Source: an archaeon
Lineage (GTDB): Archaea > Thermoproteota > Nitrososphaeria > Nitrososphaerales > JACAEJ01
Length of the DNA: 64,000 nt
NCBI GenBank assembly: GCA_024256285.1
Contig: JACGUG010000004.1
Span: 2,359 to 66,358 of the forward strand
Reading direction: 5' to 3'
Positions within the stretch are counted from its first letter, which is position 1. Every line of letters starts with the position of its first letter. The notes under the pieces were generated by a model. It ran no database searches, had not been told where the DNA came from, and saw nothing but the letters and a program-made list of their open reading frames with translations. Below are positions 8,639 to 46,967 of the stretch, piece after piece. The position numbers and the translations under genes are program-made.

Positions 8639-8886
8639 GGCTTCTTTAATTACAATCTCCCCAACTTAGATTTTGTATACTTCAAAAATTTAAACCTTGG
8701 TAGATCGAACGACCCTTCACATAAACTAACGTAAAGAGGTAGAACCTTCTAGAAGAAGGCATTGAAAGAGAAGAAAAGTTACTGAATCGAAGAGATGCCT
8801 TATGAAGTAGCGCATCAACTACTCTGTTCGAAAAGTTAATGAAAGAATTTATTAGAGATGCTTTTATCATCTAAACTTGATGTCTG

Positions 8887-9024
8887 ATGAGCAACCTAAG
8901 GCTCCTGTGCCAAAAGTACGGTAGCAGAGAGTGCCCGCTTCGAGGGACCGACGGCACCATATATGACATGTGCCCCTTATGTGAACCGGAGTTCTATCTG
9001 CAGAAGCCAGCTTCAGAAAAATAA
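8887..9024 (+). CDS. Candidate 45-aa four-Cys (zinc-ribbon-like) protein, below the ORF-track cutoff
   Basis: ATG…TAA encodes MSNLRLLCQKYGSRECPLRGTDGTIYDMCPLCEPEFYLQKPASEK. It lies in a 590-bp gap where the tracked minus-strand ORFs look spurious. There is no homology evidence. Confidence 0.3.
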   Translation: MSNLRLLCQKYGSRECPLRGTDGTIYDMCPLCEPEFYLQKPASEK

Positions 9025-25893: not shown

Positions 25894-27984
25894 TCACCTC
25901 CTTTTTATCTGGAACTTCTTAAGTGTAAGGGAGTTGGTAATGACGCTTACTGAGCTCATCGCCATAGCGATGGCTGCGAATACGGGACTTAACAGCCCGG
26001 AGGCGGCTACCGGTATGAAGCCTGTGTTATACGCAAAGGCCCAGAACAGGTTCTGCTTGATCTTGCTCATCGTCTTCTTGCTGAGCTTTATCGAAGCAAC
26101 TACGTCACGTAGATCATCCTTGATAAGCACTATTCCTCCGGTCTCAACGGCTACGTCTGTTCCGCTTCCAAGGGCGATCCCTATATCTGCTTGTGCGAGG
26201 GCTGGAGCATCGTTTATTCCATCCCCAACCATGGCCACAACCTTACCTTCTTTTTGGAGACCCTTGATTACCAAAGCTTTCTGGCCAGGGAGCACTTCGG
26301 AGATGACTTTGTCGATGCCCAGTTGTTGGGCGATTGCCTTGGCGGTTCTCCGGTTGTCACCGGTAAGCATAACCACCTCCAACCCCATTCCTTTCAGATC
26401 GTCTACGGCCTCTTTCGCGCTCTCCTTGATCGTATCGGCTACAGCGATCACACCAGCAAGGCTTCCGTTAAGGGCGAGGAGCGTTGCGGTCTTTCCTTCA
26501 TCCTCCAGTTTCTGAATCTTATCTTCTTGGGCTTCTATAGAGATGTTGTTGTCACGCATCAACTTCCTATTTCCAAGTAGAATCTCTGTATCGGAGTGAC
26601 TTGCCTTTACACCGTGACCTGGGACTGCTTCAAAGTAAGTTGGGTCAGGGACCTCAAGCCCCATTTCTTCTACTCTTCTAATTATGGCTTCTCCGAGGGG
26701 ATGCTCTGAACCCTTTTCTGAGATGGCTGCGAATCTTAGAACGTCTCTTTCAGTTGTGTTTGAAAGCGGCACTACATCTGTTACCGATGGTATGCCTTTT
26801 GTTAGGGTGCCAGTCTTGTCGAATACTATGGTCTGTACTTTGTAGGCTTTCTCCAGATACTCCCCCCCCTTTATCAGGATTCCACTCTCCGCACCCTTCC
26901 CCACTCCCACGATTATGGCTGCTGGTGTGGCAAGTCCCAATGCACATGGACACGCGATTATCAGGACCGCTACCAGAGCGGTGAAGCCTTGGATGAAGCT
27001 CCCAGCTAGAAAGAGCCATGTTGCAAAGGCCCCCAGAGCTATCAGGACTACTAAAGGCACGAAGTAGCCGGATACTCTGTCCGCCAAACGTTCTATCGGA
27101 GCTCGAGCTACAGACGCCTCCTCGACCAGCTTCACTATCTGTGCGAGTGTCGTGTCAGATCCAACCTTGGTGGCTCTTATCCTCAACATGCCGCTCTTGT
27201 TTATCGTCGCGCCTATCGCCTCATCGCCGACTTTCTTCTCAACTGGGATGCTTTCACCAGTGATCATCTTCTCATCCACACTCGAGTACCCATCTGTTAC
27301 AATACCGTCGACAGGGATCTTCTCGCCGGGTCTGACTACAACGATGTCTCCTACGCTCACCTCCTCGACAGGGACTTCGATCTCCTTTCCTTCTCGTATC
27401 ACTCTAGCCATCTTGGGCTGGAGACCGAGTAGCTTTCTTACCGCATCTGTCGCCCTTCTTTGCATTGCATGTTCAAGTAGCTTTCCTAGGAGTATGAAGC
27501 CTATGATTAGGGCAGCAGTTTCAAAGTATACAACTCTGGCATTGGGAGGTACCAAAGCTGGGAAGAAGGTAACGACAGTACTGTATCCCCATGCAGCGGA
27601 TGTTCCAATGGCTATCAGTGTATCCATATTGGCTGAACGAGATTTGATAGCGTGCAGAAAGCCCCTGTAGAACCTTTTTCCAGCGATGAATTGCACTGGA
27701 GTTGCAAGGAGAAAGAGCCAGAACTCTATCTTTACAAAGCTCGGAAGAAGATTAACGATGGCTTCTAGACCTATAAGGTCCGCCATGCTGAAGAGTAGCA
27801 GAGGGATCCCAAGGATGAAGCTCAGAGCAGTCATGCGCTTCAGATTTCTAACTTCGATCTCAGGTCTGAGGAAGGTCTGTAGGCAAGCATTGCTGCAGAA
27901 ATAGTATTCAGTTCCACGCACAGTGGCCCGTAGTGCATCGGGGCTTTCACGAACGAACATTCCGCAGATAGGGTCCTTGGGCAT
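25894..27984 (-). CDS. copA: Cu(I)-translocating P1B-type ATPase (CPC type) with an N-terminal TRASH/YHS metal-binding domain
   Basis: The N-terminus has DPICGMFV…[12 protein letters not shown]. Other motifs are TGES, the transmembrane CPC ([13 protein letters not shown]), DKTGTLT and GDGINDAP. Confidence 0.92.
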
Positions 27985-29122: not shown

Positions 29123-29749
29123 TTACGACTCTTCAGGAAACCTCTTCAGCCTCGCTGCATACCTCTCCTTGTAGGCTTCAAGGCAGGTATTACAGCAGAA
29201 GAACCGGGTCCCCTCCCCCACCCTAAGGGTATGTGGCCTCCCTGCGATCTCACCTCCACAGTAGTCGCAGGCCATCCTGATCTTCAGCTCAGGCTTCAAG
29301 AGGAGAGAAGGCCCTTCCTTCACCACCTTCGTAACTATCTGGGTTGTAGTCAGGGAGACTCCTGGCAGGGTGGTAACTTCCTCCTCGATGAAGCGCTGAA
29401 GATCCTCCAACCCTTCCACCATCAACTTCGCCACCAAGTTGCTCTCCCCCGCTGTAGTGAAGACATCGATCACCTCTTCCTTCAAGGCGAGAGACTCCTG
29501 CACTTCGCTTAGATCTTTGGCTTCAACTCGGAGATGCAGAATTGCCATGACTCCCTGTTCCACCTTGGTAAGGTCGAAGATCGGGGCGAAACCTTTGATG
29601 AAGCCCGCATCCTTCATCCGCCTGATCCTGGCCTCCACTGTAGGGGTCGATACTCCAACACGTTTAGCTACCTGCCTGTAGGAGAGCCTTCCATCCTCCA
29701 TCAGGGCCCTTAAGATGGCTATATCCAGACTGTCGAGGATTAGGGGCAT
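29123..29749 (-). CDS. Lrp/AsnC-family regulator with a C-terminal TRASH domain (CopR/CopT-like copper-responsive regulator)
   Basis: The N-terminal HTH reads LDSLDIAILRALMEDGRLSYRQVAKRVGVSTPTVEARIRRM. The C-terminus reads CDYCGGEI…FFCCNTCLEAYKERY. Confidence 0.8.
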   Translation of the reverse strand: MPLILDSLDIAILRALMEDGRLSYRQVAKRVGVSTPTVEARIRRMKDAGFIKGFAPIFDLTKVEQGVMAILHLRVEAKDLSEVQESLALKEEVIDVFTTAGESNLVAKLMVEGLEDLQRFIEEEVTTLPGVSLTTTQIVTKVVKEGPSLLLKPELKIRMACDYCGGEIAGRPHTLRVGEGTRFFCCNTCLEAYKERYAARLKRFPEES

Positions 29750-30446: not shown

Positions 30447-31334
30447 TCACATTCGCCCTATTTCTAGTATGCGTTCTTGATGTGTCAACACGTTCATTCT
30501 TCTTCCTCTAACAAAGCTGATTATAGTTGTTCCAGTCAGTCGGGCAACTTCGATACCAGAGTAGATGGCCGCAGAGATGGAGGCGACTATCGGGATCTTC
30601 ATACGTGCTGCTTTTAAGACTATGTCTCCTGTGAGTCGTCCGCTTGAAGCCAGAAAACATTCATCGAAGCCAATCTTTTTAAGGGCTACTGCACCTATTA
30701 CTTTGTCTACCGCGTTATGGCGCCCCACATCCTCTGCCCAGACCAAAAGATCGCCTCTATGGGAGTAGATGGCTGCTATGTGGACTCCTCCTGTTTTACG
30801 GTATACTCCATCGAGGGTATTGAGGCGTTTGACCGACTCCGCTATGATTTTTGCTTCGACCTTAGATCTGGATGCAGATCGGGGGAGGCTTAGTCTATCC
30901 ATAAGTTTAGAGAGAGGCCAGTAGTCGGCGGAGCCACATGCAGACACGATCAATCGGGCGAAGGGTTGTGAGACAGCAATCCGTTTTTCGGCATCGACAC
31001 TCGGTGTTAGCCTGACTTGACAATTTCCATCTTTATCTATTTGTATTCTTCGAATCTCCTCTAAAGATTTCAGTACCCCTTCTGAGAGGAGGTGGCCGAC
31101 AGCCAACTCTTTTAACTGGCCTGGAGAGCAAAGAATCGAGACATAGCGGGTTTTGTTCAGAAATATGTGTAGGGGCGTCTCCTCTGCCACAAAATCAATT
31201 TTTGTCTCTATTTTTTTAGACGAAAGATTTATCTGTGTAACTTGAACCTTCTTCAAATCGATCCTCCTCAGTTGGAGATAAGTTAAGAGTTCTCCCTCGG
31301 AAAGGTCTCCTATATCTGCTTGTGAACATGTCAA
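30447..31334 (-). CDS. fdhD: FdhD-family sulfurtransferase (formate dehydrogenase / Mo-bisPGD sulfuration accessory protein)
   Basis: GGVHIAAIY…EDVGRHNAVDKVIGA…SGRLTGDIVLKAARMKIPIVASISA is typical of FdhD. The start codon is TTG. Confidence 0.8.
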   Translation of the reverse strand: MTCSQADIGDLSEGELLTYLQLRRIDLKKVQVTQINLSSKKIETKIDFVAEETPLHIFLNKTRYVSILCSPGQLKELAVGHLLSEGVLKSLEEIRRIQIDKDGNCQVRLTPSVDAEKRIAVSQPFARLIVSACGSADYWPLSKLMDRLSLPRSASRSKVEAKIIAESVKRLNTLDGVYRKTGGVHIAAIYSHRGDLLVWAEDVGRHNAVDKVIGAVALKKIGFDECFLASSGRLTGDIVLKAARMKIPIVASISAAIYSGIEVARLTGTTIISFVRGRRMNVLTHQERILEIGRM

Positions 31335-31465: not shown

Positions 31466-32674
31466 TCATTTAATCGACCTTGAAATCTCCTCAACCGAAG
31501 AAACCAGCTTCTCGATCTCCTCTTGGGTGTTATAGAGATATGTGGAGGCTCGGACGGATCCCCTATGTCGCTTTAGCAAGATTTTCATCAAGGGAAGAGC
31601 GCAATGGGCCCCTGATCTGACCATGATGTTGGCAGAGATATCCAAAGCTAAGGCCACGTTGTGAGGGTTCAGGTCTTTGATGTTGAAGGAAACTATGCTG
31701 ATTCTTTTTTCCAAGTTTTCAGGACCGTAAACTTCGACTTGGGGGATATCTTTTAATCTATAGTGCATCTCCTTAGTTAGTTCCCTTTCATGTGTTTCTA
31801 TGTTCTTCATCCCGATCTTCCTCAGATAATCAGTTGCTGCACCTAATCCGATGACTTCAGCAATCGCAGGAGTTCCAGCTTCAAACCTTTTAGGAATTTC
31901 ATTCATTTTGTAGTAGTCTAAGCCGACATCCTCGATCGTTCCTCCACCGATAGCCATGGGTTCGATCTTTTCCAGCAGATCTTCATGGGAGTAAAGTATG
32001 CCGACTCCAGTTGGACCGAGCATCTTGTGACCTGAAAAGGCCAGGTAGTCACATCCGATTTTTTGAACATCTACTTTCAAATGGGGAACTGATTGGGCTG
32101 CGTCGATAAGCAACTGAGCGCCATGTTCATGGGCAATCTGGGCAACTTCTCTAACTGGCGTTATCACGCCTAAAACGTTTGAAACATGGGTCATTGCCAC
32201 CAAATCTGTTTTATCATCTATCGCTTTTTTGAAATCAGAAATATCGAAAAGCCCCTCCTTGTTCGGTCTAACGATCTCCACATCTACCCCATATCTTCGC
32301 TTCAGACGTAACCAGACTATGAAGTTAGAGTGGTGCTCGATAAGTGTAGTGACTATTTTTCGTCCCTTCTTCCAGTTTAGCCCGTTTGCGACAAGATTTA
32401 TGCCTTCGGTGGTGTTCTTGGTCGTTATTATTTCGGATTCAGACCTAGCATTAATAAATTCAGCAACCTTAGAGCGAGCCTCTTCGTACTCCTCGCTAGC
32501 TCTCTGAGAGAGTCTGTGGATGCCACGTTCAACATTAGCACGGTACTCATGGTAAAACTCCAACATCTTTTGGAGAACAGGCTCTGGGGTTAGGCTGGTT
32601 GCGGCATTGTCTAAGTAAATGATCCCAGAATTTAGCAAAGGGAAATCTTGCCTAATCCTCTGCACATCTAGCAA
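31466..32674 (-). CDS. Class II (SufS/CsdA-type) cysteine desulfurase
   Basis: The PLP lysine context is SGHKMLGPTGVGILY, and the catalytic Cys loop is RSGAHCA. Length is 402 aa, with a TTG start. Confidence 0.88.
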   Translation of the reverse strand: MLDVQRIRQDFPLLNSGIIYLDNAATSLTPEPVLQKMLEFYHEYRANVERGIHRLSQRASEEYEEARSKVAEFINARSESEIITTKNTTEGINLVANGLNWKKGRKIVTTLIEHHSNFIVWLRLKRRYGVDVEIVRPNKEGLFDISDFKKAIDDKTDLVAMTHVSNVLGVITPVREVAQIAHEHGAQLLIDAAQSVPHLKVDVQKIGCDYLAFSGHKMLGPTGVGILYSHEDLLEKIEPMAIGGGTIEDVGLDYYKMNEIPKRFEAGTPAIAEVIGLGAATDYLRKIGMKNIETHERELTKEMHYRLKDIPQVEVYGPENLEKRISIVSFNIKDLNPHNVALALDISANIMVRSGAHCALPLMKILLKRHRGSVRASTYLYNTQEEIEKLVSSVEEISRSIK

Positions 32675-32724: not shown

Positions 32725-33195
32725 CTACCAACACAATAACTCACTTCCTTTTGAATGAATCGCCCATATCAGGAGAAACGATACGATTCTTGCGACACTT
32801 GCTAATGGATGACCCTTAGCCTTGAGTTCAAGTGTGCAGAACCAACCGAAGGGAGTTCTGACAACCTTAAAGCCTTTTTCAATCAATCCTTTTTTCGTTA
32901 GCTCTAGTATCTCTACTGCGACCTCCGGTTTGCTCAGTTCTCCAAATAGATGAGTGAAGGGATGAAGAACCATAGTGCCTATCTTTAGTTGTTTGGCCAG
33001 CTTGGATATCTGTTCGGTGGCTTTCCTTGAGACCGATTCAGGATCGCGTTCATCTTGTTTCTCAACACTTGATAAAATGATCAATGCTTCCTTTACTTCC
33101 ATGGTCTTGGATTCGGGCTCTTCAACAATCCTAGACCTGCCCTTCTTGCTGATTGTAGAACGGAAATAGTCCACGTGAAGCATAAGCATCCTCAT
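32725..33195 (-). CDS. Free-standing archaeal ThrRS-editing-domain-like protein (tRNA-Thr_ED / DTD-like fold), paralog 1
   Basis: MRMLMLHVDYF…EALIILSSVEKQDERDPE…VLHPFTHLFGELSKPEVAVEIL…PFGWFCTLELKAKGHPLASVARIV resembles the N-terminal editing domain of archaeal ThrRS, as I recall it from Pyrococcus. No synthetase or anticodon-binding domain is attached. Confidence 0.7.
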   Translation of the reverse strand: MRMLMLHVDYFRSTISKKGRSRIVEEPESKTMEVKEALIILSSVEKQDERDPESVSRKATEQISKLAKQLKIGTMVLHPFTHLFGELSKPEVAVEILELTKKGLIEKGFKVVRTPFGWFCTLELKAKGHPLASVARIVSFLLIWAIHSKGSELLCW

Positions 33196-33234: not shown

Positions 33235-33699
33235 TCAATGTTTCAAGTATTCTGCTCTGACTTTTCTCTGACTCCTCCTTAGAATTTCTAACAGCGTTGA
33301 TGAAGATATATTCAGGCTTTTGGCTAGTTCTGCAAGAGTTTTCCTCTTTGGGTAGTCGAAATAGCCTGCTTCAAAAGCCGCCTGAATTATCTGCTCCTGT
33401 CTATGTGTCAATACTTCTTTGACCTTCGCTCTAGTGACCTTGTTTATTTCAACCTCCAATCCCCTGTCAGCAAACTTTTTCAATAGACGCTTGAACTGAT
33501 CGAGCCCTCCCAGGGTGAGAGTATATTCTACATAACCGTTCTTCTTGGTTCTAGCAGAGGCGAGAAAGCATTTTGACTCTGTGAATATTCTACAAGCGAG
33601 ACACTTTGAAGTCTTTATCCAGCCAAAAGCCCTGTCTCTTCCAACTCTGATGATATCGAATTCACAGATAAGCTTGTTTTGATTCATACTTTCTATCAC
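33235..33699 (-). CDS. HTH_10 (Bat/COG3413-like) DNA-binding protein
   Basis: The C-terminus reads LTHRQEQIIQAAFEAGYFDYPKRKTLAELAKSLNISSSTLLEILRRSQRKV. The N-terminal domain may be shortened, because the upstream 200 bp has only broken frames. Confidence 0.65.
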   Translation of the reverse strand: MIESMNQNKLICEFDIIRVGRDRAFGWIKTSKCLACRIFTESKCFLASARTKKNGYVEYTLTLGGLDQFKRLLKKFADRGLEVEINKVTRAKVKEVLTHRQEQIIQAAFEAGYFDYPKRKTLAELAKSLNISSSTLLEILRRSQRKVRAEYLKH

Positions 33700-33902: not shown

Positions 33903-34982
33903 TTAGACCATGGGAAGACCTAACCTTTCAGCGATTTTCCTGTATGTCTTCAATGCAGACTCTTCATCGTAAATCCCTGAACCAGGGGCTACCTGTAATA
34001 TAGATACTCCTCCCTTCAGCACGCTCACCCCCACTTCTTTACTATAATCAAAGGTCAGACCCATTGTGCCCTCTGCCTTTAAGGGGATTCCTTCAGCCCA
34101 AAGCTTGTTTCTTATACCTTCTATATCAAGGGCTTTTACTCTCGTGTCAACGATGAAGACGCCCCTTCCATCCCTCCCGCAGACCCCACTCACAGCCTTT
34201 TCGAGCACTTGAGAAGTCTCGATTCTAGCTTCCCCACATGTAGGGCAATTGACATTCCTTGATAACTCTACCACATCGAAGCAGAAGTTCTCAAGGTCCA
34301 CGAACATGAGGCGGTTTTTGAGGTAGGGTTCTCTGTTCAGCAGGATTCTAACTGCCTCGGAGACTTCGATGCTGGAAACTACATCGAGAAGAGGTGTAAA
34401 GACTCCCACGATTGCGCATCTTTCCATATCTTCATCTTTTAGACCTGAGTAAAAGCACTCAAGGCAAGCAGTTTCCCCTGGGATGAAGGTTGATACGTTT
34501 CCAAAGGTCTGGATAGCAGCCCCAAAGATGTAAGGTATCTTCAGCTTTACGGCTGCCCTATTCAAGATGTACCTGGCTCCTATAGTATCCAATCCATCGA
34601 TAACCAGATCTACTCCCTCTATCAGCTCTTCAACGTTGTGAGAGGTGATGGATGTTGCTATGGGGTCTACCTCTACACTGGAATTCAATATACTCAGCCT
34701 CTTTACAGCAGCTTCAACTTTTGGCATACCTATACAGGATTCGTCATAGAGATACTGCCTGTGGAGGTCTGACTTCGATACAACGTCTCTATCGATAACA
34801 CGAAGGTAACCTATGCCCATGGCTACCATCTTCAAGGCTATGGGAGAGCCAAGCCCCCCCGCTCCCACGAGGCATACCCTCCCTGCTCTGAGAAGTGACT
34901 GCCCTTCATACCCTATGTAATTCAGAGCGATCTGCCTTGAATACCTCTCCAACTCTTCATCTGTAAGCTCAGTTCTTCCCAT
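33903..34982 (-). CDS. ThiF/MoeB/UbaA-type E1-like adenylyltransferase with a C-terminal extension of about 100 aa
   Basis: RYSRQI and GAGGLGS form the nucleotide-binding motif. There are two CxxC pairs (CLEC, CPTC). The C-terminal extension has no rhodanese signature that I can see. Confidence 0.85.
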   Translation of the reverse strand: MGRTELTDEELERYSRQIALNYIGYEGQSLLRAGRVCLVGAGGLGSPIALKMVAMGIGYLRVIDRDVVSKSDLHRQYLYDESCIGMPKVEAAVKRLSILNSSVEVDPIATSITSHNVEELIEGVDLVIDGLDTIGARYILNRAAVKLKIPYIFGAAIQTFGNVSTFIPGETACLECFYSGLKDEDMERCAIVGVFTPLLDVVSSIEVSEAVRILLNREPYLKNRLMFVDLENFCFDVVELSRNVNCPTCGEARIETSQVLEKAVSGVCGRDGRGVFIVDTRVKALDIEGIRNKLWAEGIPLKAEGTMGLTFDYSKEVGVSVLKGGVSILQVAPGSGIYDEESALKTYRKIAERLGLPMV

Positions 34983-35141
34983 TCAACTCACCCCAAGAGA
35001 ATATCAGATTGTCAAAACTCCTTTTATAAATGGATGAAACCTTAACCCATATCTACAGGTTAAAATTTTCACTAATGCTTCACATCCTTACATATATCTC
35101 ACCTAGTTAATATATTAATTTATTTTTGACAAAAAATTCCT

Positions 35142-35474
35142 TTATGAATAATCTACTTCCAGTATTCTTTGAGCCTCTACATCATCTTCAAATAAGTATC
35201 TTGAGGGCATTACATCGACCCTTATGCCAAGATTTTCTAAGGTATCTCTTGTTGGTTGTCCGGTGGCGACTATTATCGCACTTTCTTTGAAAAGTTTTGC
35301 TACTTTATTTTTCTTTATACATCTTTGCAATAATCTGAACATGTTCAGATGATTGCGGCAGTAGAACTGGTGAATATCATGGCATCTACCTATAGTTCGA
35401 CAAATCATCGACGAATTCTTCGATAGGAACTTCGAAGGGGTTATGGGCTCATACATTAGAATACATGTCTCCAT
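35142..35474 (-). CDS. Hypothetical protein (111 aa from the ATG at 35474); the C-terminus is faintly HemD-like
   Basis: The tracked 181-aa ORF overlaps the better-supported plus-strand gene at 35529, so I prefer the internal ATG. …IVATGQPTRDTLENLGIRVDVMPSRY resembles a uroporphyrinogen-III synthase half-domain. The region is AT-rich. Confidence 0.3.
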   Translation of the reverse strand: METCILMYEPITPSKFLSKNSSMICRTIGRCHDIHQFYCRNHLNMFRLLQRCIKKNKVAKLFKESAIIVATGQPTRDTLENLGIRVDVMPSRYLFEDDVEAQRILEVDYS

Positions 35475-35492
35475 ATCCTTACATAAAACATA

Positions 35493-35507
35493 TATAACAA
35501 TGTTATA
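35493..35507. promoter_or_regulatory. TATAAC-AAT-GTTATA palindrome (perfect) centred in a 54-nt divergent intergenic region
   Basis: It lies 18 nt from the ATG at 35474 (minus strand) and 21 nt from the ATG at 35529 (plus strand). Confidence 0.5.
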
Positions 35508-35528
35508 ATTAAAATCTGGGGGATTACT

Positions 35529-35951
35529 ATGAAGATGTTGTTCATCCATTGTAATTACTTCTCCTACCTTACAACCCAAAAAACGAAAGTGGCTGAGGAC
35601 CTCCCAAATGGATGTAAAAGTTGCGCTTTTAAGGACGCATTGGTCGTTTTCGTAACCGCAGAGAAAGTCGACGAGAAAAATCCGCAAAAAGTAGTGGGTA
35701 TGGGGATTAAGGCGATCGTAGACGTTTCAAACAAGGTGGGCGCAAAGAACATCGTCCTCTTCCCCTTTGTGCACCTTTCAGACGAAATCAGTAGTGCAGA
35801 GACGGGGTCAGAAATCATTAGAAACATCTATGAAAACCTCAGTTCTCTTAACTATACAGTTGACAAAGCCCCCTTTGGATGGGAGAAGGTGTTCTCCATG
35901 ACCTCAAAGGGCCATCCGTTGGCAGAGCTTTCTAGGACGATTCGGCCATAG
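35529..35951 (+). CDS. Free-standing archaeal ThrRS-editing-domain-like protein, paralog 2
   Basis: MKMLFIHCNYF…ALVVFVTAEKVDEKNPQKV…VLFPFVHLSDEISSAETGSEII…APFGWEKVFSMTSKGHPLAELSRTIRP is closer to the canonical editing domain than paralog 1. Length is 140 aa, single domain. Confidence 0.75.
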   Translation: MKMLFIHCNYFSYLTTQKTKVAEDLPNGCKSCAFKDALVVFVTAEKVDEKNPQKVVGMGIKAIVDVSNKVGAKNIVLFPFVHLSDEISSAETGSEIIRNIYENLSSLNYTVDKAPFGWEKVFSMTSKGHPLAELSRTIRP

Positions 35952-36001
35952 TCCTAAATCCTTAATTTTGAAAATTCATTGAAAGATAAGCTTATAGGAG
36001 T

Positions 36002-36280
36002 TCATCCTCCGCTAACAGCTGGAATGATCGAAACCTCATCTTCATCTTTTAATACTGTATCAAAATAGTTGAGGAAGCGTACATCTTTACCATCTACGTA
36101 GATGTTGATGAACCTTCTTATATTTCCCGTTGCGTCTAAGAGTTTCGCCTTAAACCTGTCTCCCCATCTTGCAGTCAGCCCATCGATTACCTCCCTTAGC
36201 GTCGACGCCTCCACTTCCACCTCTTTTTCTCCAGTCAAGTTCACTAAAGCTCCATAAAGAACGGTTTTTACTTTGCTCAT
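36002..36280 (-). CDS. MoaD/ThiS-family ubiquitin-like sulfur carrier ending in Gly-Gly
   Basis: …INIYVDGKDVRFL…LKDEDEVSIIPAVSGG is followed directly by the stop. GAGGTG lies upstream of the ATG at 36280. An alternative GTG at 36295 would overlap the ThrC-like stop (GTGA). Confidence 0.75.
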   Translation of the reverse strand: MSKVKTVLYGALVNLTGEKEVEVEASTLREVIDGLTARWGDRFKAKLLDATGNIRRFINIYVDGKDVRFLNYFDTVLKDEDEVSIIPAVSGG

Positions 36281-36291
36281 TTTCACACCTC

Positions 36292-37536
36292 TCACTTTAC
36301 GATCTCTGCAAGTGACTCTAAAGTAGGCTCGATCTCAAAGGGTTTAGCTATACTGTTTAAAAGAGTCTCGGCTGCCTTGAACCCGTTACCAGTGACACAA
36401 CAGACAATCTCCTCATCTGGCGATATCTCTCCAAGCTTGACAAGTTTCTTTAAGACCGCTACTGTCACACCACCGGCAGGCTCGGCGAAGATCCCCTCTG
36501 TTTTCGCTAAAAGTTGGATTGCATCTAATATCTCAAAGTCCGTAACTGATTCGGCCACGCCGCCAGATTCACGTATAGCCTTTATGGCATAAAAACCGTC
36601 TCCCGGGTCTCCTATGGCCAAGCTCTTTGCTACAGTAGAGGGATGCTCGATGGGCTTCACGTCAAGGGCGTTGGCTTTAAAGGCCTTTACTATCGGAGCA
36701 CAACCGGAAGGCTGGGCACCCGTGATTCTAGTCTTTAAATCATCGACTAAATCGAGTCTTTGGAACTCTTTGAGGCCCCTCCAAATGGCACAGAGCAAGG
36801 CTCCACTGGCCATCGGCACTATCACACGGTCTGGAGCTTTCCATCCAAGTTGCTCACATATCTCAAAGGCCAAAGTTTTTGAACCCTCCACATAGTACGG
36901 CCGAATGTTTATGTTCGCAAAGGCCCAGTCGTATACCTCTGAAGCCTGAGCTGCGAGCCGGTTGGCATCATCGTAGGTTCCTTTAACGGCCACTATTCTA
37001 GCTCCATAGATCGTTGCCTGTAGGATTTTGTTGAGTTCGATGTCTGATGGAATGAAAACGTAGCAAGGCAATCCGGCTTTGGCTGCATGAGCCGCTGTAG
37101 CGGCAGCTAGATTGCCTGTTGAAGCACACCCGACAGCCTTGGCGCCAAATTCTAGAGCCTTAGATACGGCAACAGTAGCCGGTCTGTCTTTAAATGAGTA
37201 GGTTGGATTGACCGTATCGTCCTTGATATACAGTTTTCTTAATCCAAATATCTCCGCTAGCCTGTCACATCTGTGTAAAATTGTGTAGCCAGCACCTAGA
37301 TCCACGATTTTTGTTCTATTATTGACGGGTAGGAGTTCGAAGTATCGCCAGACCGTTTTAGGTCTATCTTGAAACGATTTCCTGTCAAGCTCTATGAGGT
37401 CATAGTTGTAGGTTACCTCAAGAGGCCCAAAACAGTCCTCACAAGTGTAAATCTTGGTTGGGAGGTGCTCTCTTCCACACTCTCTACACTTGAGCGATCT
37501 GATATATTCCAGTCTCTCGATACTTTCTATAACCAT
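36292..37536 (-). CDS. Threonine synthase-like PLP enzyme with an N-terminal Zn-ribbon
   Basis: CRECG…CEDCFGPLEVTY is followed by the PLP-lysine region PTYSFKDRPA and a TrpB-like fold II pattern. I prefer the ATG at 37536 over 37554. Confidence 0.8.
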   Translation of the reverse strand: MVIESIERLEYIRSLKCRECGREHLPTKIYTCEDCFGPLEVTYNYDLIELDRKSFQDRPKTVWRYFELLPVNNRTKIVDLGAGYTILHRCDRLAEIFGLRKLYIKDDTVNPTYSFKDRPATVAVSKALEFGAKAVGCASTGNLAAATAAHAAKAGLPCYVFIPSDIELNKILQATIYGARIVAVKGTYDDANRLAAQASEVYDWAFANINIRPYYVEGSKTLAFEICEQLGWKAPDRVIVPMASGALLCAIWRGLKEFQRLDLVDDLKTRITGAQPSGCAPIVKAFKANALDVKPIEHPSTVAKSLAIGDPGDGFYAIKAIRESGGVAESVTDFEILDAIQLLAKTEGIFAEPAGGVTVAVLKKLVKLGEISPDEEIVCCVTGNGFKAAETLLNSIAKPFEIEPTLESLAEIVK

Positions 37537-37542
37537 GTTATA
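37528..37542. promoter_or_regulatory. TATAAC-CAT-GTTATA palindrome (perfect) centred on the likely ThrC-like start codon
   Basis: The CAT spacer is the reverse complement of the ATG at 37534-37536. Confidence 0.45.
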
Positions 37543-37636
37543 ACTGATAATCACCTAATACATTAATATTTTTTTGATAATTCTATTCCAATTAGAATAA
37601 AATTGGGGGGACCCTTGCATCGTTAAATATATAAAC

Positions 37637-37689: not shown

Positions 37690-37782
37690 GCCGGGGTGGC
37701 CGAGCGGTTAGGCGGCAGGCTGCAGACGGTTCTATGTGTAGAGACCTGCTCTACGCAGGTTCGAATCCTGCCCCCGGCTCCA
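37690..37782 (+). tRNA. tRNA-Cys (GCA) with an 18-nt intron at the canonical 37/38 position and an encoded CCA
   Basis: Manual fold gives: acceptor GCCGGGG/CCCCGGC; D arm GCC…GGC; anticodon stem GCAGG/CCTGC enclosing CTGCAG + 18-nt intron + A; 5-nt variable loop; T arm GCAGG-TTCGAAT-CCTGC; discriminator U followed by CCA. Confidence 0.85.
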
Positions 37783-37848: not shown

Positions 37849-38031
37849 ATGGCTGAAAAGGCTGTAGAGGAAACCTTTGCGGTGTTGTTTGCCCTGATCG
37901 ACTTAAGACAGATTTTTAGAGAGACCAAGCCCACTTATCGGCTTAGCACTGAACAGAAGGAGAAGATCAAGGAGATTCTTGGAGAAGTAAGACAGAGTTT
38001 GGATATTATTGAAAAGGAGCTGGTAACATGA
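37849..38031 (+). CDS. 60-aa predicted helical protein translationally coupled to SepCysS (ATGA overlap)
   Basis: MAEKAVEETFAVLFALIDLRQIFRETKPTYRLSTEQKEKIKEILGEVRQSLDIIEKELVT has amphipathic, heptad-like character. Its stop overlaps the SepCysS ATG. Confidence 0.45.
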   Translation: MAEKAVEETFAVLFALIDLRQIFRETKPTYRLSTEQKEKIKEILGEVRQSLDIIEKELVT

Positions 38032-39343: not shown

Positions 39344-41533
39344 ATGAACCATCGAAACCATAATAAACATAGTCACCAAGACCATGCTCACCACATAGAA
39401 GAGTTCAAAAGAAGGCTTTGGCTATCCCTTATACTTACAATCCCCATTCTACTTCTTTCCGAAATGATCCAGATATGGTTTGGTTTTAGTCTAAAAATAC
39501 CATTTCAGAAAGAGGTTTTATTCCTTCTATCTCTAATTGTTTACCTTTACGGTGGGTGGCCCTTCTTAAAGGGAATAGTCCAAGAAGTAAAGACCCACCA
39601 GCCAGGGATGATGACCCTTATAGGCACAGCCATATCCGTGGCCTTCTTCTATTCTGCAGGAACAGTCTTCCTCATAGTTGGGAAGGATTTCTTCTGGGAA
39701 CTTGTAACTCTTATCGATGTAATGCTTCTTGGGCACTGGATAGAGGCTAAAAGTGTTCTTGGGGCTTCGAGGGCATTGGAAGAGCTCGTCAAGATAATGC
39801 CTACGACAGCCCACCTTGTCAAAAACGGTGAAATTGCAGATGTCCCAGTTTCACAGTTAAAGACTGACCAAGTTGTTCTTGTTCGTCCAGGAGAGAAGAT
39901 ACCTTCCGATGGCCTTGTAATAGAGGGGAAATCCTTCGTCAATGAAGCCCTTTTGACAGGAGAATCGAAACCCGTTCATAAAGAGACAGAAGATAAAGTG
40001 ATAGGTGGTGCAATAAACGGAGAAGGCGTTTTGAAGGTAAGAATAGAAAGGACAGGTGAAGAAACTTATCTGGCACAGGTAATAAAACTAGTAAGACAAG
40101 CTCAAGAAAGTAGGTCTAGAACTCAAGATCTGGCAAACAGAGCATCGGCCCTTCTTTTTTATGTTGCCCTTGGAGTGGGAATAGTAACCTACATAACATG
40201 GTTTCTTCTTTCTACACCCTTTTTTGCCCTTGAAAGATCCGTTACGGTTCTCGTTATAGCCTGCCCCCATGCCCTCGGTCTGGCAATACCTCTTGTTGTC
40301 GCCCTCTCCACTTCTATAACTGCAAAAAGTGGAATCCTCATCAGGGATAGAAGAGCCTTTGAGATGGTCAAGGATGTAAACGCTGTTGTCTTTGACAAGA
40401 CTGGGACGTTGACAGAAGGCAAGTTCGGGGTTAGTGATGTGGTATCCTTGACGCCTGAAGATGAACTTTTAAAACTCACTTCAAGTGTAGAACTGAACTC
40501 TGAGCATATAATAGCAAAGGCTATTGTGGAATATACAAAGGAAAGAAGTATAGCGATTCCTCAGGTGCAGGAATTCAAGGCGATACCCGGTAAGGGTGCC
40601 TATGGAAAAGTTGAAGACAAAGAAGTCTATGTAGGAAGTCCGAACCTTCTGAAAGAAATGAAGATAGAGATAGAAGATCAGAGGATAAAGGAACTTCAGG
40701 AACAGGGCAAAACGGTCGTTTTTACCATAGTTGATGGAAAACTTGTTGGTGCCTTCGCTCTTTCTGATAAGATAAGAAAGGAATCCTACGAAGCGGTCAG
40801 GAAATTAAAGGAGATAGGGTTAAAGGTCTACATGCTCACAGGGGATGCTGAGGAAGTCGCCCGATGGGTTGCGAAAGAACTCGGTATAGACGAATACTTT
40901 GCCCAAGTCTTGCCCGACGAGAAAGCAGAAAAAGTCAAGCTCTTGAAGGAAAAAGGCTATAAAGTTGCTATGGTCGGCGATGGCGTGAACGATGCTCCCG
41001 CCCTTGTTACGGCAGATGTTGGTATCGCCATAGGTGCTGGAACCGATGTAGCCATAGAAAGTGCAGATATAATCCTCGTGAAAAATGACCCTACGGACGT
41101 TTCAAAGGTTACTGACCTTTCACAGAAAACGTACTCGAAGATGGTTCAGAATCTGTGGTGGGCATCGGGTTATAATATCTTCGCTATACCCCTAGCAGCT
41201 GGTGTTTTGTATAATTTCGGAATAGTCGTAAGTCCTGCGGTGGGGGCCTTGTTTATGTCCTTGAGCACCGCTATAGTTGCCTTTAATAGCCAGACCTTGA
41301 GAAAGTACGAACCAAAGGTTGCAGAGTTTGTAGAGAAGAAGCATATGACCACAGACCCGGTTTGTGGGATGAAGGTAGAACCCGAAAAGGCTTACAGCAA
41401 GATGGAGTATGAGGGATATGTTATCTACTTCTGTTCAGAAGACTGTGAAGAGGAATTTAAGAAGAATCCTGAAAGATACCTATCAAAGATGAAAAAAGAA
41501 GAACCTAAAAAACATGAACATCGCCATCACTAA
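39344..41533 (+). CDS. copB: P1B-type copper ATPase of the CPH (CopB-like) type, with a His-rich N-terminus and a C-terminal TRASH/YHS domain plus His-rich tail
   Basis: The N-terminus reads MNHRNHNKHSHQDHAHH. Core motifs are the transmembrane ACPHALGLAIP, DKTGTLT and GDGVNDAP. The C-terminus has DPVCGMKV…YVIYFCSEDCEEEFKKNPERY…KHEHRHH. Confidence 0.9.
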   Translation: MNHRNHNKHSHQDHAHHIEEFKRRLWLSLILTIPILLLSEMIQIWFGFSLKIPFQKEVLFLLSLIVYLYGGWPFLKGIVQEVKTHQPGMMTLIGTAISVAFFYSAGTVFLIVGKDFFWELVTLIDVMLLGHWIEAKSVLGASRALEELVKIMPTTAHLVKNGEIADVPVSQLKTDQVVLVRPGEKIPSDGLVIEGKSFVNEALLTGESKPVHKETEDKVIGGAINGEGVLKVRIERTGEETYLAQVIKLVRQAQESRSRTQDLANRASALLFYVALGVGIVTYITWFLLSTPFFALERSVTVLVIACPHALGLAIPLVVALSTSITAKSGILIRDRRAFEMVKDVNAVVFDKTGTLTEGKFGVSDVVSLTPEDELLKLTSSVELNSEHIIAKAIVEYTKERSIAIPQVQEFKAIPGKGAYGKVEDKEVYVGSPNLLKEMKIEIEDQRIKELQEQGKTVVFTIVDGKLVGAFALSDKIRKESYEAVRKLKEIGLKVYMLTGDAEEVARWVAKELGIDEYFAQVLPDEKAEKVKLLKEKGYKVAMVGDGVNDAPALVTADVGIAIGAGTDVAIESADIILVKNDPTDVSKVTDLSQKTYSKMVQNLWWASGYNIFAIPLAAGVLYNFGIVVSPAVGALFMSLSTAIVAFNSQTLRKYEPKVAEFVEKKHMTTDPVCGMKVEPEKAYSKMEYEGYVIYFCSEDCEEEFKKNPERYLSKMKKEEPKKHEHRHH

Positions 41534-43613: not shown

Positions 43614-46600
43614 GTGGGAATGTCTAAAGAATACGATCCTTGGGTTGTGCTACAAGATATAGTTGAGAGAGAGGGGGTTGCTCGTCAGCACCTGAACTCG
43701 TACAATGAATTTGTCCAGAAAGACATCCATAACATAATCGATGATGTTGGAGAAGTGGAGATCGAAGCAACAGGAAGTCCTTATAAGGTAAAGTTTGGTG
43801 GAGTTTCCATCGGACCGCCTAGGGTTGTGGAGATCGACGGCTCCGTTAGTAACATTCTACCGATGGAGGCTAGATTGCGTGACCTTACTTACACTTCGCC
43901 GGTACACTTAGAGATGAGCATAGTAGAGGATGGTTCCATTCGAGAGTTTCAAAGCCATTATATCGGAGACCTGCCGATTATGGTGAAGTCTTCTTTATGC
44001 CCCCTTCACAGAATGAGTAGAGCGGATTTAATCCGAGTCGGTGAAGATCCAGATGACCCTGGAGGTTACTTCATTATCAATGGTTCTGAGAGAGTTATAG
44101 TTGGGCTTGAGGACCTTATCCCCAATAAGATCTTAGTAGATTATGAGACGAGTGGAAGCGCCTCCTTATACAAGGCTAAGGTCTACTCATCGATAGTCGG
44201 TTATCGAGCGAAGCTTGAATTAACACTAAAGCGAGATGGCGCTCTTTACATCAAGGTTCCAACATCTCCTGTCGAACTCCCCTTCGTAATAATAATGAGG
44301 GCTCTAGGACTTCAATCTGATAAAGAGATAGCTGAGATAGTCTCACTTAAACCGGAGGTTCAGAATTTCCTAGATGTATCTTTTGACAAGGCAAGTAATG
44401 TAATGACGCCAGAGGCAGCCTTGACGTACATAGGCAATAGAATCGCATATGGGATGCTCGATGAATTTAGGATAAGGAGGGCACAGTCATTACTTGATTG
44501 GGGGCTTCTGCCACATTTAGGCAGATCGCCAGAAGATCGTATAAGTAAAGCCATATTTCTGGGCGAAGCTGTATCTAAGCTTTTTGAACTGAAGCTTGGG
44601 TGGATAGAAATAGACGATAGAGACCATTATGGCAACAAAGTCATCAAATTCGCTGGGGAGATGATAGCGGATCTATTCAGAACTGCATTTCGTAATATGG
44701 TAAGGGATATGAAGTATCAGCTTGAGAAGATGGGTCAGAGGCGTGGCATCAACGCGGTTGGGGCTGCGATAAGACCTGGTATAATCACAGACAAATTACG
44801 TAACTCCATAGCAACGGGCAATTGGGGCAGGGGTAAAGTTGGGGTTACACAACTTCTTGATAGGACGAACTACCTCTCTACTATAAGTCATCTAAGGCGC
44901 ATCCAGTCCCCCTTGAGCAGAAGTCAGCCCAATTATGAGGCTAGGGACCTTCATGGAACGCACTTTGGCAGAATCTGCCCCAACGAAACTCCAGAGGGGT
45001 CTAACTGTGGCCTTGTCAAAAATCTTGCTCTCTCAACCATAATTTCTGTCAGCGCCCCAGAGTCTGATATTTTAGATAAATTATCGGAGCTAGGGGTTAA
45101 GCCTGTTCCAGAAAGTAGTGAAGACCTAAGAAGGGATGGTTGCAAAGCCTTCTTAGAAGGTCGTTTAATAGGTTACGTAGAGGATGGTGAATCTTTTGCA
45201 ACAGATTTCAGGAAGCTACGTAGGCAGGGGTTGATAAATCCAGACGTTAGTGTCTATCTTTACGTACCGAAGGACCAGAGAGGAACTAGAAGAGTTTACA
45301 TATCTATGCGCTCTGGGCGGGTTATGAGACCCCTCATTGTAGTGGAAGATGGGCAGCCGCTTTTGAACAATGAGCTGATAGAACGTGTATCAAAAGGTGA
45401 ACTCACCTGGCGTGATCCACTAGAGCATGGTGTGATAGAGCTGATCGATGCGAACGAAGAAGAGAACTGTCTCGTGGCTATCGATGTAAACTCTCTGACC
45501 GAGAAGCACACTCACCTTGAGTTGATACCGTCTGCCATATTTGGAGTTGCAGCCTCCATAATACCGTATCCTGAGCATAACCAATCACCACGTAATACGT
45601 ACGAATCCGCCATGGCTAAACAATCGTTAGGTTTCTCATTACCCACCTTTCCCTTCTCTACTTATGTGAGGAGCCATCTGCTAGCATATCCTCAAAAACC
45701 TCTAGTTGCGACGCGTTCATCGTCTTTAATAAAATTGGACGAGAGACCTATAGGACAGAACTGTATAGTCGCTGTACTATCTTATGAAGGATACAACATA
45801 GAGGACGCCATAGTCATGAATAAGTCTTCTGTGGATAGAGGGCTTGCACGCACATTCTTCTATAGACTTTACGAGGCTGAAGCCAAGCAATATTTAGGTG
45901 GCATGAAAGATGAATTCACGATACCCTCGCCAGATACCAATGTAAGAGGATATCGTGGTGAGAAGTACTACCGTCTTTTAGAATCTGATGGCGTGGTTAT
46001 GCATGAAGCCAATGTATATGGTGGGGATGTAGTCATAGGGAGGACCAGCCCACCTAGGTTTATGGAAGAATATAGGGAGTTCGAGATAAAGGGCCCGTAT
46101 AGGCGAGATACTTCTGTAGCGATAAGACCCTCGGAGTCGGGGGTCGTAGATAGTGTATTCCTTACCGAGAGCGTGGATGGTGGAAAGACGTTCAAAATAA
46201 GGGTTAGGGATATGAGAGTCCCTGAGATAGGAGATAAATTCGCCTCTAGGCACGGACAGAAGGGCGTGATAGGTCTCTTAGTGAATCAAGAAGATATGCC
46301 CTATACCAAAGATGGGATCGTTCCCGATATTATCATAAATCCACATGCCTTCCCATCAAGAATGACCGTCGGTCAGTTCATAGAATCTATCACGGGAAAA
46401 GTAGCTGCAATAAAGGGTGTTTCTGTTGATGGTACCGCATTTATTGGAGAAAAGACTGAGAAAGTAGGGAAGATATTGACTGAAGCAGGTTTTCAACCAT
46501 TAGGGATGGAGGTAATGTATGATGGAAAGACTGGTAAGCAGTATAAAACGAATATCTTTATCGGTGTAGTATACTATCAAAAACTTCATCATATGGTTGC

Positions 46601-46967
46601 AGATAAGATTCATGCCAGGGCAAGAGGTCAAGTGCAGATGCTTACAAAGCAACCTACTGAGGGCAGGGCAAGAGGTGGTGGGTTAAGGTTCGGGGAGATG
46701 GAAAGGGACTGCTTGATAGCCTATGGCGCATCGATGGTTCTTAAGGATAGGCTACTCGATGAATCTGACAGAACCGAGCTTCATGTCTGTGAGAGATGTG
46801 GTCTGATAGCATATTATGATACAAGGCAGAGGAAATATGTATGCAGGGTCTGTGGCGAATCGGCAGAGATATCGACGGTTGTAGTCGCATACGCATTTAA
46901 GCTTCTATTGCAAGAAATGATAAGTCTAAACATAGTGCCCAAGCTGATCTTAAAAGGTAAAGTTTGA
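43614..46967 (+). CDS. rpoB: RNA polymerase subunit B (unsplit)
   Basis: The 1117-aa protein has FASRHGQKGV, GEMERDCLIAYGA and a C-terminal Zn motif CERCG…CRVCG. The start is the GTG at 43614 or the ATG at 43620. Confidence 0.97.
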   Translation: MGMSKEYDPWVVLQDIVEREGVARQHLNSYNEFVQKDIHNIIDDVGEVEIEATGSPYKVKFGGVSIGPPRVVEIDGSVSNILPMEARLRDLTYTSPVHLEMSIVEDGSIREFQSHYIGDLPIMVKSSLCPLHRMSRADLIRVGEDPDDPGGYFIINGSERVIVGLEDLIPNKILVDYETSGSASLYKAKVYSSIVGYRAKLELTLKRDGALYIKVPTSPVELPFVIIMRALGLQSDKEIAEIVSLKPEVQNFLDVSFDKASNVMTPEAALTYIGNRIAYGMLDEFRIRRAQSLLDWGLLPHLGRSPEDRISKAIFLGEAVSKLFELKLGWIEIDDRDHYGNKVIKFAGEMIADLFRTAFRNMVRDMKYQLEKMGQRRGINAVGAAIRPGIITDKLRNSIATGNWGRGKVGVTQLLDRTNYLSTISHLRRIQSPLSRSQPNYEARDLHGTHFGRICPNETPEGSNCGLVKNLALSTIISVSAPESDILDKLSELGVKPVPESSEDLRRDGCKAFLEGRLIGYVEDGESFATDFRKLRRQGLINPDVSVYLYVPKDQRGTRRVYISMRSGRVMRPLIVVEDGQPLLNNELIERVSKGELTWRDPLEHGVIELIDANEEENCLVAIDVNSLTEKHTHLELIPSAIFGVAASIIPYPEHNQSPRNTYESAMAKQSLGFSLPTFPFSTYVRSHLLAYPQKPLVATRSSSLIKLDERPIGQNCIVAVLSYEGYNIEDAIVMNKSSVDRGLARTFFYRLYEAEAKQYLGGMKDEFTIPSPDTNVRGYRGEKYYRLLESDGVVMHEANVYGGDVVIGRTSPPRFMEEYREFEIKGPYRRDTSVAIRPSESGVVDSVFLTESVDGGKTFKIRVRDMRVPEIGDKFASRHGQKGVIGLLVNQEDMPYTKDGIVPDIIINPHAFPSRMTVGQFIESITGKVAAIKGVSVDGTAFIGEKTEKVGKILTEAGFQPLGMEVMYDGKTGKQYKTNIFIGVVYYQKLHHMVADKIHARARGQVQMLTKQPTEGRARGGGLRFGEMERDCLIAYGASMVLKDRLLDESDRTELHVCERCGLIAYYDTRQRKYVCRVCGESAEISTVVVAYAFKLLLQEMISLNIVPKLILKGKV

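Follow-up and report, generated by a model that had tools for sequence, protein, structure and literature searches.

A probable MetM/MetO-type enzyme and sulfur carrier pair in a Nitrososphaerales archaeon, clustered with an E1-like protein that has a TBP-like domain

INTRODUCTION

In Streptomyces albulus, homocysteine is formed from O-phosphohomoserine by MetM, a homolog of threonine synthase (ThrC), together with the thiocarboxylated carrier protein MetO (Hasebe et al. 2024, Appl Environ Microbiol 90:e01247-24, as summarised in PMC12172450 and a GapMind 2026 preprint). In these two summaries Mec and MoeZ are named as further components of the pathway, the enzyme is described as ‘often misannotated’, namely as threonine synthase, and Streptomyces is reported to have it alongside the normal pathways. 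The metM gene of S. albulus has an S-adenosylmethionine (SAM) riboswitch upstream (PMC12172450). Here we describe a ThrC-like gene and an adjoining sulfur carrier gene that are probably an archaeal counterpart of this pair. They lie in a stretch of 64 000 nucleotides from a Nitrososphaerales archaeon (assembly GCA_024256285.1, contig JACGUG010000004.1, positions 2359–66 358), which we call the window and whose own numbering is used throughout.

The carrier of such a system is expected to be activated by an E1-like adenylyltransferase, and the one encoded near this pair belongs to a type that has been seen before. Archaeal E1 proteins with a C-terminal domain resembling the TATA-binding protein (TBP) were described by Makarova and Koonin (2010), whose passages on arCOG01676 assign no function to the domain, and a MoeB–TBP fusion was noted by Brindefalk et al. 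(2013), who in their treatment of the ‘ThiF-MoeZ-MoeB group’ likewise give the domain no function and remark that experimental information on the fusion is lacking. The sulfur donor of archaeal carrier thiocarboxylation is marked ‘S-donor?’ in a 2017 review (PMC5372739).

RESULTS

A ThrC-like gene coupled to a sulfur carrier gene

The candidate MetM-type enzyme, a pyridoxal phosphate (PLP) protein of the ThrC fold, is encoded on the reverse strand at 36292–37554 and has 420 amino acids when read from a GTG codon (PALP, 262 bits). The NCBI entry for the identical protein (MCP8306953.1, ‘MAG: threonine synthase [archaeon]’) has 414 amino acids, and the true start is therefore likely to be the ATG at 37536. 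The MetO-type carrier, a ThiS/MoaD beta-grasp protein of 92 amino acids (ThiS, 55 bits), follows on the same strand at 36002–36280. Between the TGA stop codon of the enzyme (36294–36292) and the carrier ATG at 36280 there are 11 nucleotides, GAGGTGTGAAA, which hold a Shine-Dalgarno-like GAGGTG; an alternative carrier start, the GTG at 36295, overlaps the enzyme stop codon as GTGA. The E1-like adenylyltransferase (359 amino acids; ThiF, 227 bits) is encoded 1019 nucleotides downstream of the carrier, also on the reverse strand, at 33903–34982. A preliminary description of the window, made without database searches, had pointed out both a coupled junction between a ThrC-like gene and a carrier gene and a ThiF/MoeB-type E1 about 1 kb away on the same strand, and both features are confirmed by these coordinates.

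The arrangement is conserved well beyond this genome. A locus scan with one genome per species gave 80 further loci, which come from Bathyarchaeia, Hadarchaeota, Caldarchaeales, Planctomycetota, Binatus/‘delta’, Dehalococcoidia, Verrucomicrobia, Acidimicrobiia, Acidobacteria and Gemmatimonadales, with about 33 from the Streptomyces group. Of 87 loci from Archaea and Bacteria, 82 have a carrier homolog immediately behind the ThrC-like gene, and in all six archaeal long contigs that were inspected gene by gene the next gene is of the ThiS family. In the archaeal loci the distance from the enzyme stop codon to the carrier start ranges from −14 to +14 nucleotides. The pairing of enzyme and carrier is far beyond chance.

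Among 14 bacterial loci, 12 have a SAM riboswitch directly upstream of the operon (11 SAM-I and one SAM-II), with examples in Streptomyces, Acidimicrobiia, Binatus/‘delta’, Verrucomicrobia, Planctomycetota, Acidobacteria and Gemmatimonadales. The riboswitches of the Streptomyces group were found in L054, L060 and L071, and the SAM-II element (RF00521) is found at 9798–9871 of L069, before the Gemmatimonadales ortholog. In L017 and L029, both of Binatus/‘delta’, the riboswitch stands upstream of an E1 gene, which itself precedes the ThrC-like gene. That two riboswitch classes occur on one operon argues for a function in methionine synthesis.

Active-site residues set the enzyme apart from threonine synthase

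The catalytic lysine of the window enzyme, K122 in the motif SFKDR, aligns with K61 of Thermus thermophilus ThrC. At the positions equivalent to Thermus residues 88, 155, 157, 160 and 242, the window enzyme carries L149, N216, R218, Y221 and A313. We compared these positions across the carrier-linked clade, using 88 members from archaea (16), about eight bacterial phyla and the Streptomyces group (33 sequences) aligned with five solved ThrCs. The combination L/N/R/Y/A occurs in 88 of 88 clade members, whereas all five solved ThrCs have T/S/N/R at 88/155/157/160 and R, K or Q at 242. Relative to ThrC, the changes read T88L, S155N, N157R, R160Y and R242A, and G64P and Q164S accompany them. Residues of the canonical phosphate pocket (T88, S155, R160, N157 and R242) are thus replaced in the window enzyme. 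The T88, S155 and R160 side chains of ThrC reportedly bind the substrate phosphate, which is said to direct the addition of water.

The same division appears in larger sets of 120 sequences each, in which motifs were matched on unaligned sequences. Archaeal homologs of the window enzyme have STGNL (120/120) and N.N.R.[YF]Y.EG (118/120), as against STGNT (118/120) and NS[VI]NPFR (120/120) in Thermoplasmata-type ThrCs. The latter set came from a search with P0286, a canonical-signature ThrC with a Zn ribbon; its named sources are all Thermoplasmata/Thermoplasmatota, and most of its members are unnamed. Profile comparison likewise places the window enzyme with the MetM type, at 581.8 bits for a profile built from bacterial clade members only and 403.9 bits for a canonical ThrC profile that included archaeal Zn-ribbon ThrCs (+178 bits), and held-out controls scored as expected. 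In a neighbour-joining tree, which carries no support values, the MetM-type sequences form a clade of 110 tips without any ThrC-type sequence, and the archaeal loci are monophyletic inside it. A phylogeny of the kind that the preliminary description had proposed for separating the enzyme from ThrC sets it in the MetM-type clade. Identity to the Streptomyces counterparts, among which S. albulus is not represented, is 45–48% over residues 20–417. Judged by its sequence, the window enzyme is not a canonical threonine synthase.

Models for other relatives fit it poorly or do not appear. The cysteate synthase model TIGR03844 gives 83 bits against a cut-off of 324.9, and no cysM or cysK model of NCBIfam is among the best 25 of its 44 matches. 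An N-terminal Zn ribbon of the form CxxC...CxxC (C23, C26, C38 and C41) had been taken in the preliminary description as a mark of an archaeal variant, a view that the wider comparison does not bear out. In the carrier-linked clade, Streptomyces members included, the first three cysteines are present in 83 of 88 sequences and the fourth in 75 of 88, and the ribbon is also found in 110 of 120 canonical Thermoplasmata-type ThrCs. Since it is shared by MetM-type and ThrC-type enzymes, it is not diagnostic.

The nearest representatives at 50% identity clustering (150 sequences, P0241–P0390) are more varied than these two classes. Strict MetM motifs occur in 34 of them and ThrC motifs in four, and the other 112 have other phosphate-pocket residues. 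Some of the 112 have near-variant motifs and sit inside the MetM clade of the neighbour-joining tree; others include two families, one of about 615 amino acids in NC10 bacteria and one of about 490 amino acids. All representatives with a source name are labelled ‘threonine synthase’. Several further uncharacterised specificities may exist among the non-matching representatives.

The carrier and its C-terminus

The window carrier ends in ...SIIPAVSGG with a free Gly-Gly. It shares 45–49% identity with the Streptomyces carriers at the same position and the common terminus ...PA[VI]xGG, which is typical of the carriers of the clade (about 91 amino acids). It passes the subfamily model moaD_arch (53.2 bits against 49.5) and fails both the moaD equivalog (19.9 against 66) and SAMP1 (57.1 against 60). 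At the archaeal locus L003, the carrier adjoining the MetM-type gene is 73% identical to the window carrier, compared with 32% for the other MoaD/SAMP-like gene on that contig.

All intact archaeal carrier reading frames end in free GG, so that no Mec-type trimming would be needed. Elsewhere the ends are GGC in 15 Streptomyces carriers and GGR, GGE or GGN in Binatus. No JAMM/JAB protease was detected in the 64-kb window, either by tblastn with the JAB protein of L006 or by Pfam scans of the open reading frames (ORFs), and a Mec-type JAMM protease may be encoded elsewhere in this genome. In L006, L008 and L012 there are JAB genes close to the pair, and a Prok-JAB gene is found about 4.7 kb downstream in L005.

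Genomic context in other archaea

Genes of sulfur metabolism surround the pair in L004 and L006. In L004, the pair is surrounded by genes for 3′-phosphoadenosine 5′-phosphosulfate reductase, ATP sulfurylase, sulfite reductase, TusA, E1 and ThiI. A sulfur-relay cluster of unusual completeness at 8375–16365 of L006 comprises a CysM-like PALP enzyme, a desampylase-like JAMM protein, the MetM-type enzyme, the carrier, three DsrE/DsrH-family genes (DsrEFH), TusA, an E1–TBP protein, a cysteine desulfurase and ThiI; the carrier there may be common to the synthesis of cysteine and that of homocysteine. Separate CysM/CysK-like ORFs stand beside the pair in L003, L004 and L006, one of them with a JAMM partner. 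The gene directly after the carrier in L003 encodes a homoserine kinase (327.8 bits against a curated cut-off of 194). In the window, the neighbours of the enzyme gene are the carrier, E1, SufS, FdhD and SepCysS rather than a threonine operon. At the control loci L091 and L092, canonical Zn-ribbon ThrC genes of Thermoplasmatota sit in a thrB-thrC-hom-aspartokinase operon with no carrier.

An E1-like protein with a conserved cysteine in a TBP-like domain

The ThiF domain of the E1-like protein covers residues 14–247 and includes a Zn site (C173/C176/C246/C249) and a crossover-loop cysteine (C189); it is followed by an extension of about 110 amino acids without a Pfam match. A full-length AlphaFold2 model has a mean predicted local distance difference test score (pLDDT) of 88.5 and superposes on MoeB/ThiF with template modelling (TM) scores of 0.94–0.96 normalised to the target. 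The extension (residues ~253–359; 33906–34226, reverse strand) was also modelled alone, as the C-terminal 107 residues, with a pLDDT of 89.8 and the topology beta-beta-alpha-beta4-alpha. Its best solved matches in a fold search are TATA-binding proteins (E = 5.8e-3, TM 0.52–0.57); the search returned no match at E ≤ 1e-3 and no rhodanese. The best NCBIfam matches of the E1 are MoeB models, and the equivalog cut-offs for MoeB, MoeZ and UbaA are all far from reached: the MoeZ model NF005902 gives 151 bits against 647, on the ThiF part only, and UbaA gives 189.6 against 450.

At the end of the first strand of the TBP-like domain, in the sequence C-G-R-D-G, lies C268 (codon 34181–34179). This cysteine is invariant in 34 of 34 E1 homologs, as are R270, G325 and Y347, and its equivalent is kept in all 10 MetM-linked E1s that were aligned (nine archaeal and one from Planctomycetota). 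We regard Cys268 as a candidate persulfide acceptor. The modelling and fold search that the preliminary description had called for thus uphold its view of the C-terminal domain as non-rhodanese, while its statement that the domain has no candidate cysteine does not stand. Nor is the extended E1 as unusual as it had appeared, given that the TBP-like domain was already noted in published analyses; ThiF with a TBP-like domain is the commonest E1 architecture in archaea and is also present in bacteria.

Full-length homologs of this E1 occur in archaea, Desulfobacterales and other bacteria, although the Desulfobacterales locus L089 showed no telling gene context. Ten other archaeal loci have a homologous long E1 gene close to the MetM/MetO pair; in L004, L010, L011, L014 and L016 it immediately follows the carrier. 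In one Nitrososphaerota genome the E1 gene is divergent from TusA-IscS-NifU and followed by DsrE. In the Streptomyces-group loci scanned, no E1 was found within 10 kb of the pair, and a short ThiF gene stands upstream in the Binatus/‘delta’ loci. The E1 of the window may be shared with other carriers.

Candidate sulfur suppliers

Two genes on the same strand as the pair would be suited to deliver sulfur. One encodes a cysteine desulfurase of the SufS family at 31466–32674 (TIGR01979 sufS, 496.5 bits against a cut-off of 475), and the other an FdhD-family sulfurtransferase at 30447–31334 (TIGR00129, 191 against 141). A SufS homolog is found within 10 kb of the pair in L001, L002, L006, L012, L014, L016 and L090. 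The neighbourhood of carrier, FdhD and SufS recurs in Candidatus Hecatella (L001, L002) and in L090, the closest relative, where a segment has been inverted and the gene set kept (two editing-domain genes, E1, FdhD, SufS, carrier, enzyme, a 60-amino-acid ORF and SepCysS). SufS and FdhD would plausibly supply the sulfur, with SufS as the probable source for the carrier; FdhD may take part in the persulfide relay, or it may be unrelated and act in formate dehydrogenase maturation. The SufBD and SufC genes of iron-sulfur (Fe-S) cluster assembly lie at 12884–14858 on the reverse strand, about 17 kb from SufS, and because of them SufS may work for Fe-S assembly, in addition to carrier loading or in its place.

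DISCUSSION

Probable homocysteine synthesis and its alternatives

The tests of active site, regulation, profile and tree, and context together lead us to assign the window enzyme to the MetM type, and we consider it probable that the window pair belongs to the MetM/MetO family, as an archaeal representative, and makes homocysteine from O-phosphohomoserine. This reading had been raised in the preliminary description by analogy to Streptomyces, and it has gained support, the pair falling in the same clade as the carrier-linked Streptomyces pairs under SAM riboswitch control. Several points weigh against it. The window enzyme passes the hidden Markov models for threonine synthase (NF006050, 317.7 bits against 303; TIGR00260, 306.7 against 167) and shares about 41% identity with Aquifex ThrC. 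T88, S155 and R160 are presumed phosphate ligands, and the function of the archaeal members is predicted from sequence. A search for SAM riboswitches in the archaeal loci found none, so that the regulatory support is transferred from the bacteria. The closest relative, L090, encodes at 1548–3460 HcyBio (PF01837, with CBS) and a NIL-ferredoxin, about 8 kb from its E1; these are genes of the methanogen type of route, in which homocysteine is made from aspartate semialdehyde, and because of them the MetM/MetO route may be redundant, one of two in this lineage. For a Microcystis homolog, weak activity in vitro as ThrC and as threonine deaminase is reported (PMC12172450). Finally, if the genome has no other thrC, the MetM-type enzyme must also make threonine.

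The weak threonine formation by the Microcystis homolog and the matches to the ThrC equivalog models would both fit a bifunctional enzyme, the sole ThrC homolog of the organism, which would make threonine without a thiocarboxylate and homocysteine with the loaded carrier. Such an enzyme also accords with the gene order of L003, where the pair adjoins thrB and part of hom, and with the outcome of Pfam/ORF scans and tblastn, which showed no second ThrC/PALP gene, no thrB and no second E1 in the 64-kb window, itself a small part of the genome. We nevertheless find such dual function unlikely, as the five positions conserved in ThrC are replaced throughout the clade, the bacterial members are under SAM rather than threonine control, and Streptomyces, in the summaries cited above, has MetM on top of its normal pathways. 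An ordinary threonine synthase that merely neighbours a MoaD/SAMP-type carrier, with carrier, E1 and FdhD serving molybdopterin or tungstopterin synthesis or tRNA thiolation, would explain why the carrier passes moaD_arch, why the E1 matches MoeB models best and why FdhD is near. It is hard to reconcile with an adjacency that 82 of 87 archaeal and bacterial loci share, with the tight coupling of start and stop codons, or with an active-site signature that co-varies with the presence of the carrier; furthermore, no MoaE was seen in the 64-kb window and the E1 scores far under the MoeB/MoeZ/UbaA equivalog cut-offs. We consider this explanation highly improbable.

A cysteine synthase acting on O-phosphoserine deserves attention too, as an analog of CysM/CysO in an organism that handles O-phosphoserine for SepRS/SepCysS. 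SepCysS is a divergent neighbour of the pair in the window, L090 and L013, the ThrC-family cysteate synthase uses O-phosphoserine, and an aminoacrylate would be just as suitable a target for sulfur-carrier chemistry. An enzyme with another substrate should differ in its active-site residues, yet the window enzyme has exactly the residues of the SAM-regulated bacterial orthologs. The separate CysM/CysK-like genes beside the pair in L003, L004 and L006 (one with its JAMM partner), the homoserine kinase gene adjoining the pair in L003 and the score of 83 bits against 325 for the cysteate synthase model point the same way, and make a role in cysteine synthesis very unlikely. The CysO/CysM alternative of the preliminary description is an analogy only, the window enzyme having the ThrC fold and not that of CysK/CysM.

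A proposed mechanism

If homocysteine is the product, four steps can be proposed. The E1, by its family assignment, would adenylate Gly92 of the carrier. SufS would then take sulfur from cysteine as a persulfide, by which the adenylated carrier would be converted to the thiocarboxylate (carrier-COSH), possibly through FdhD and through Cys268 and/or Cys189 of the E1. In the third step the PLP enzyme would eliminate phosphate from O-phosphohomoserine; its pocket, remodelled by T88L, S155N, N157R and R160Y, would no longer hold the phosphate that guides water to C-beta, and the carrier thiocarboxylate would attack C-gamma instead. Release from the carrier–homocysteine adduct would give free homocysteine and the regenerated carrier, and the homocysteine would be methylated to methionine.

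For the loading step we offer a more tentative idea, which we think possible though on balance doubtful, namely that the TBP-like domain is a sulfurtransferase module standing in for a rhodanese, in which Cys268 takes a persulfide from SufS/IscS, directly or via FdhD, TusA or DsrE, and passes it to the adenylated carrier. If true, it would reveal the sulfur donation so far missing from the picture of protein thiocarboxylate formation in archaea, which feeds methionine synthesis, tRNA thiolation and molybdenum cofactor synthesis. The archaeal clusters of carrier, E1 with its invariant-cysteine TBP-like domain, cysteine desulfurase and FdhD, TusA or DsrE make carrier loading a testable hypothesis.

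Implications for annotation

Hundreds of archaeal relatives of the window enzyme, in Bathyarchaeia, Hecatella, Caldarchaeales, Hadarchaeota and Nitrososphaerales, have been deposited as ‘threonine synthase’. A pair of motifs separates the MetM type (STGNL with N.N.R.[YF]Y.EG) from ThrC (STGNT with NS.NP.R.EG), and its use would set right how threonine and methionine metabolism are reconstructed. The methionine route reported from Streptomyces in 2024 would extend to many uncultured archaea and about eight bacterial phyla, with the two SAM riboswitch classes as independent regulatory support.

Other genes around the pair

Downstream (3′) of the E1 gene, the same strand encodes in order a transcription regulator of the HTH_10 family, an editing-domain protein, SufS and FdhD. 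The regulator (33235–33699; PF04967, 74.5 bits), situated between the E1 and the editing-domain gene, may be a local one. The editing-domain protein, which we call ED2 (32725–33195; PF08915, 128 bits), lies 50 nucleotides upstream of SufS and is one of two stand-alone proteins related to the editing domain of threonyl-tRNA synthetase (ThrRS). The other, ED1 (140 amino acids; PF08915, 144 bits), is encoded on the opposite (forward) strand at 35529–35951, in the gap between carrier and E1. Both align end-to-end with the editing domain of Pyrococcus abyssi ThrRS (1Y2Q), and proteins of this kind have 140 and about 140–156 amino acids. In L090 the two editing-domain genes are at 8499–8909 and 13720–14142, with ED1 in the same position, and a homolog of ED2 with 62% identity is found at 17342–17761 of L006, in the sulfur-relay cluster beside DsrE. 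The ED2-type copies lack K121 of the solved domain and have cysteine (window) or asparagine (L006) in its place. The idea that this cysteine marks a sulfur relay was dropped because of the asparagine in the L006 homolog. ED1 and ED2 may be trans-editing factors for a ThrRS without an editing domain or may have a role linked to the cluster, and their membership in the system is uncertain.

The divergent upstream neighbours of the ThrC-like gene are a tRNA-Ser gene and SepCysS, both on the forward strand. The tRNA gene (37690–37782; anticodon aga by ARAGORN; Rfam tRNA, 51 bits) stands between the ThrC-like gene and the SepCysS operon, in which a 60-amino-acid ORF without a Pfam match (37849–38031) overlaps the SepCysS start codon as ATGA at 38028. 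This ORF is kept in L090 (16058–16240), and it might encode a partner of SepCysS resembling the SepCysSn/SepCysE-N reported by Mukai et al. (2017).

Two copper-type P-type ATPases with YHS domains flank the cluster, at 25894–27984 on the reverse strand and 39344–41533 on the forward strand, and an Lrp/AsnC regulator with a TRASH metal-binding domain is encoded at 29123–29749 on the reverse strand. Heavy-metal-type P-type ATPases are also near the pair in L003 (HMA domain) and in L006 and L090 (YHS domain). Further along the forward strand are the genes for RNA polymerase subunits B (43614–46967, 1117 amino acids) and A (46978–50793, 1271 amino acids, with Rpb1 domains 1–5 in a single ORF). Both subunits are unsplit, which is unusual for archaea and agrees with the affiliation to Nitrososphaerota/Methylarchaceae that the best protein hits suggest.

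Comparison with described systems

The window enzyme and canonical ThrC (PDB 2ZSJ, 6CGQ, 1UIM and 2D1F, and the Thermoplasmata-type enzymes) have in common the fold, the PLP lysine motif and probably the substrate O-phosphohomoserine. They differ in the five signature changes, in G64P and Q164S, and in genomic setting, the window gene being linked to a carrier rather than placed in a thrB-thrC-hom-ask operon. With the CysM/CysO/Mec/MoeZ system of Mycobacterium tuberculosis (PMC12910592) the window locus shares the general plan of a PLP enzyme that acts on a phosphorylated hydroxy-amino acid with an E1-activated protein thiocarboxylate. CysM, however, is of the CysK/CysM family and performs beta-replacement on O-phosphoserine, whereas the window enzyme is of the ThrC family and would act by gamma-replacement.

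Like the archaeal E1–TBP proteins of arCOG01676, the window E1 combines a ThiF core with a single C-terminal TBP-like domain; beyond what the published passages on these proteins report, we find an invariant cysteine and repeated linkage to cysteine desulfurase, TusA and DsrE. The closest likeness is to MetM/MetO of S. albulus, in which a ThrC-homologous PLP enzyme with a Zn ribbon is likewise followed by a ThiS-family carrier of about 91 amino acids ending in ...PAVxGG, with signature and clade in common. In contrast to the Streptomyces systems, the window pair is archaeal and has no SAM riboswitch, its carrier ends in free GG where 15 Streptomyces carriers end in GGC, and no Mec/JAMM gene was found in the window. 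Its genes are clustered with those for SufS, FdhD, SepCysS and ThrRS editing domains, and its E1, encoded nearby, joins ThiF to a cysteine-bearing TBP-like domain, unlike MoeZ, the E1 with a rhodanese domain that is given for the pathway in GapMind. The MetM/MetO kind of pathway is already known; what is new here is a probable archaeal member with an E1–TBP activation module, typical of archaea, in place of MoeZ.

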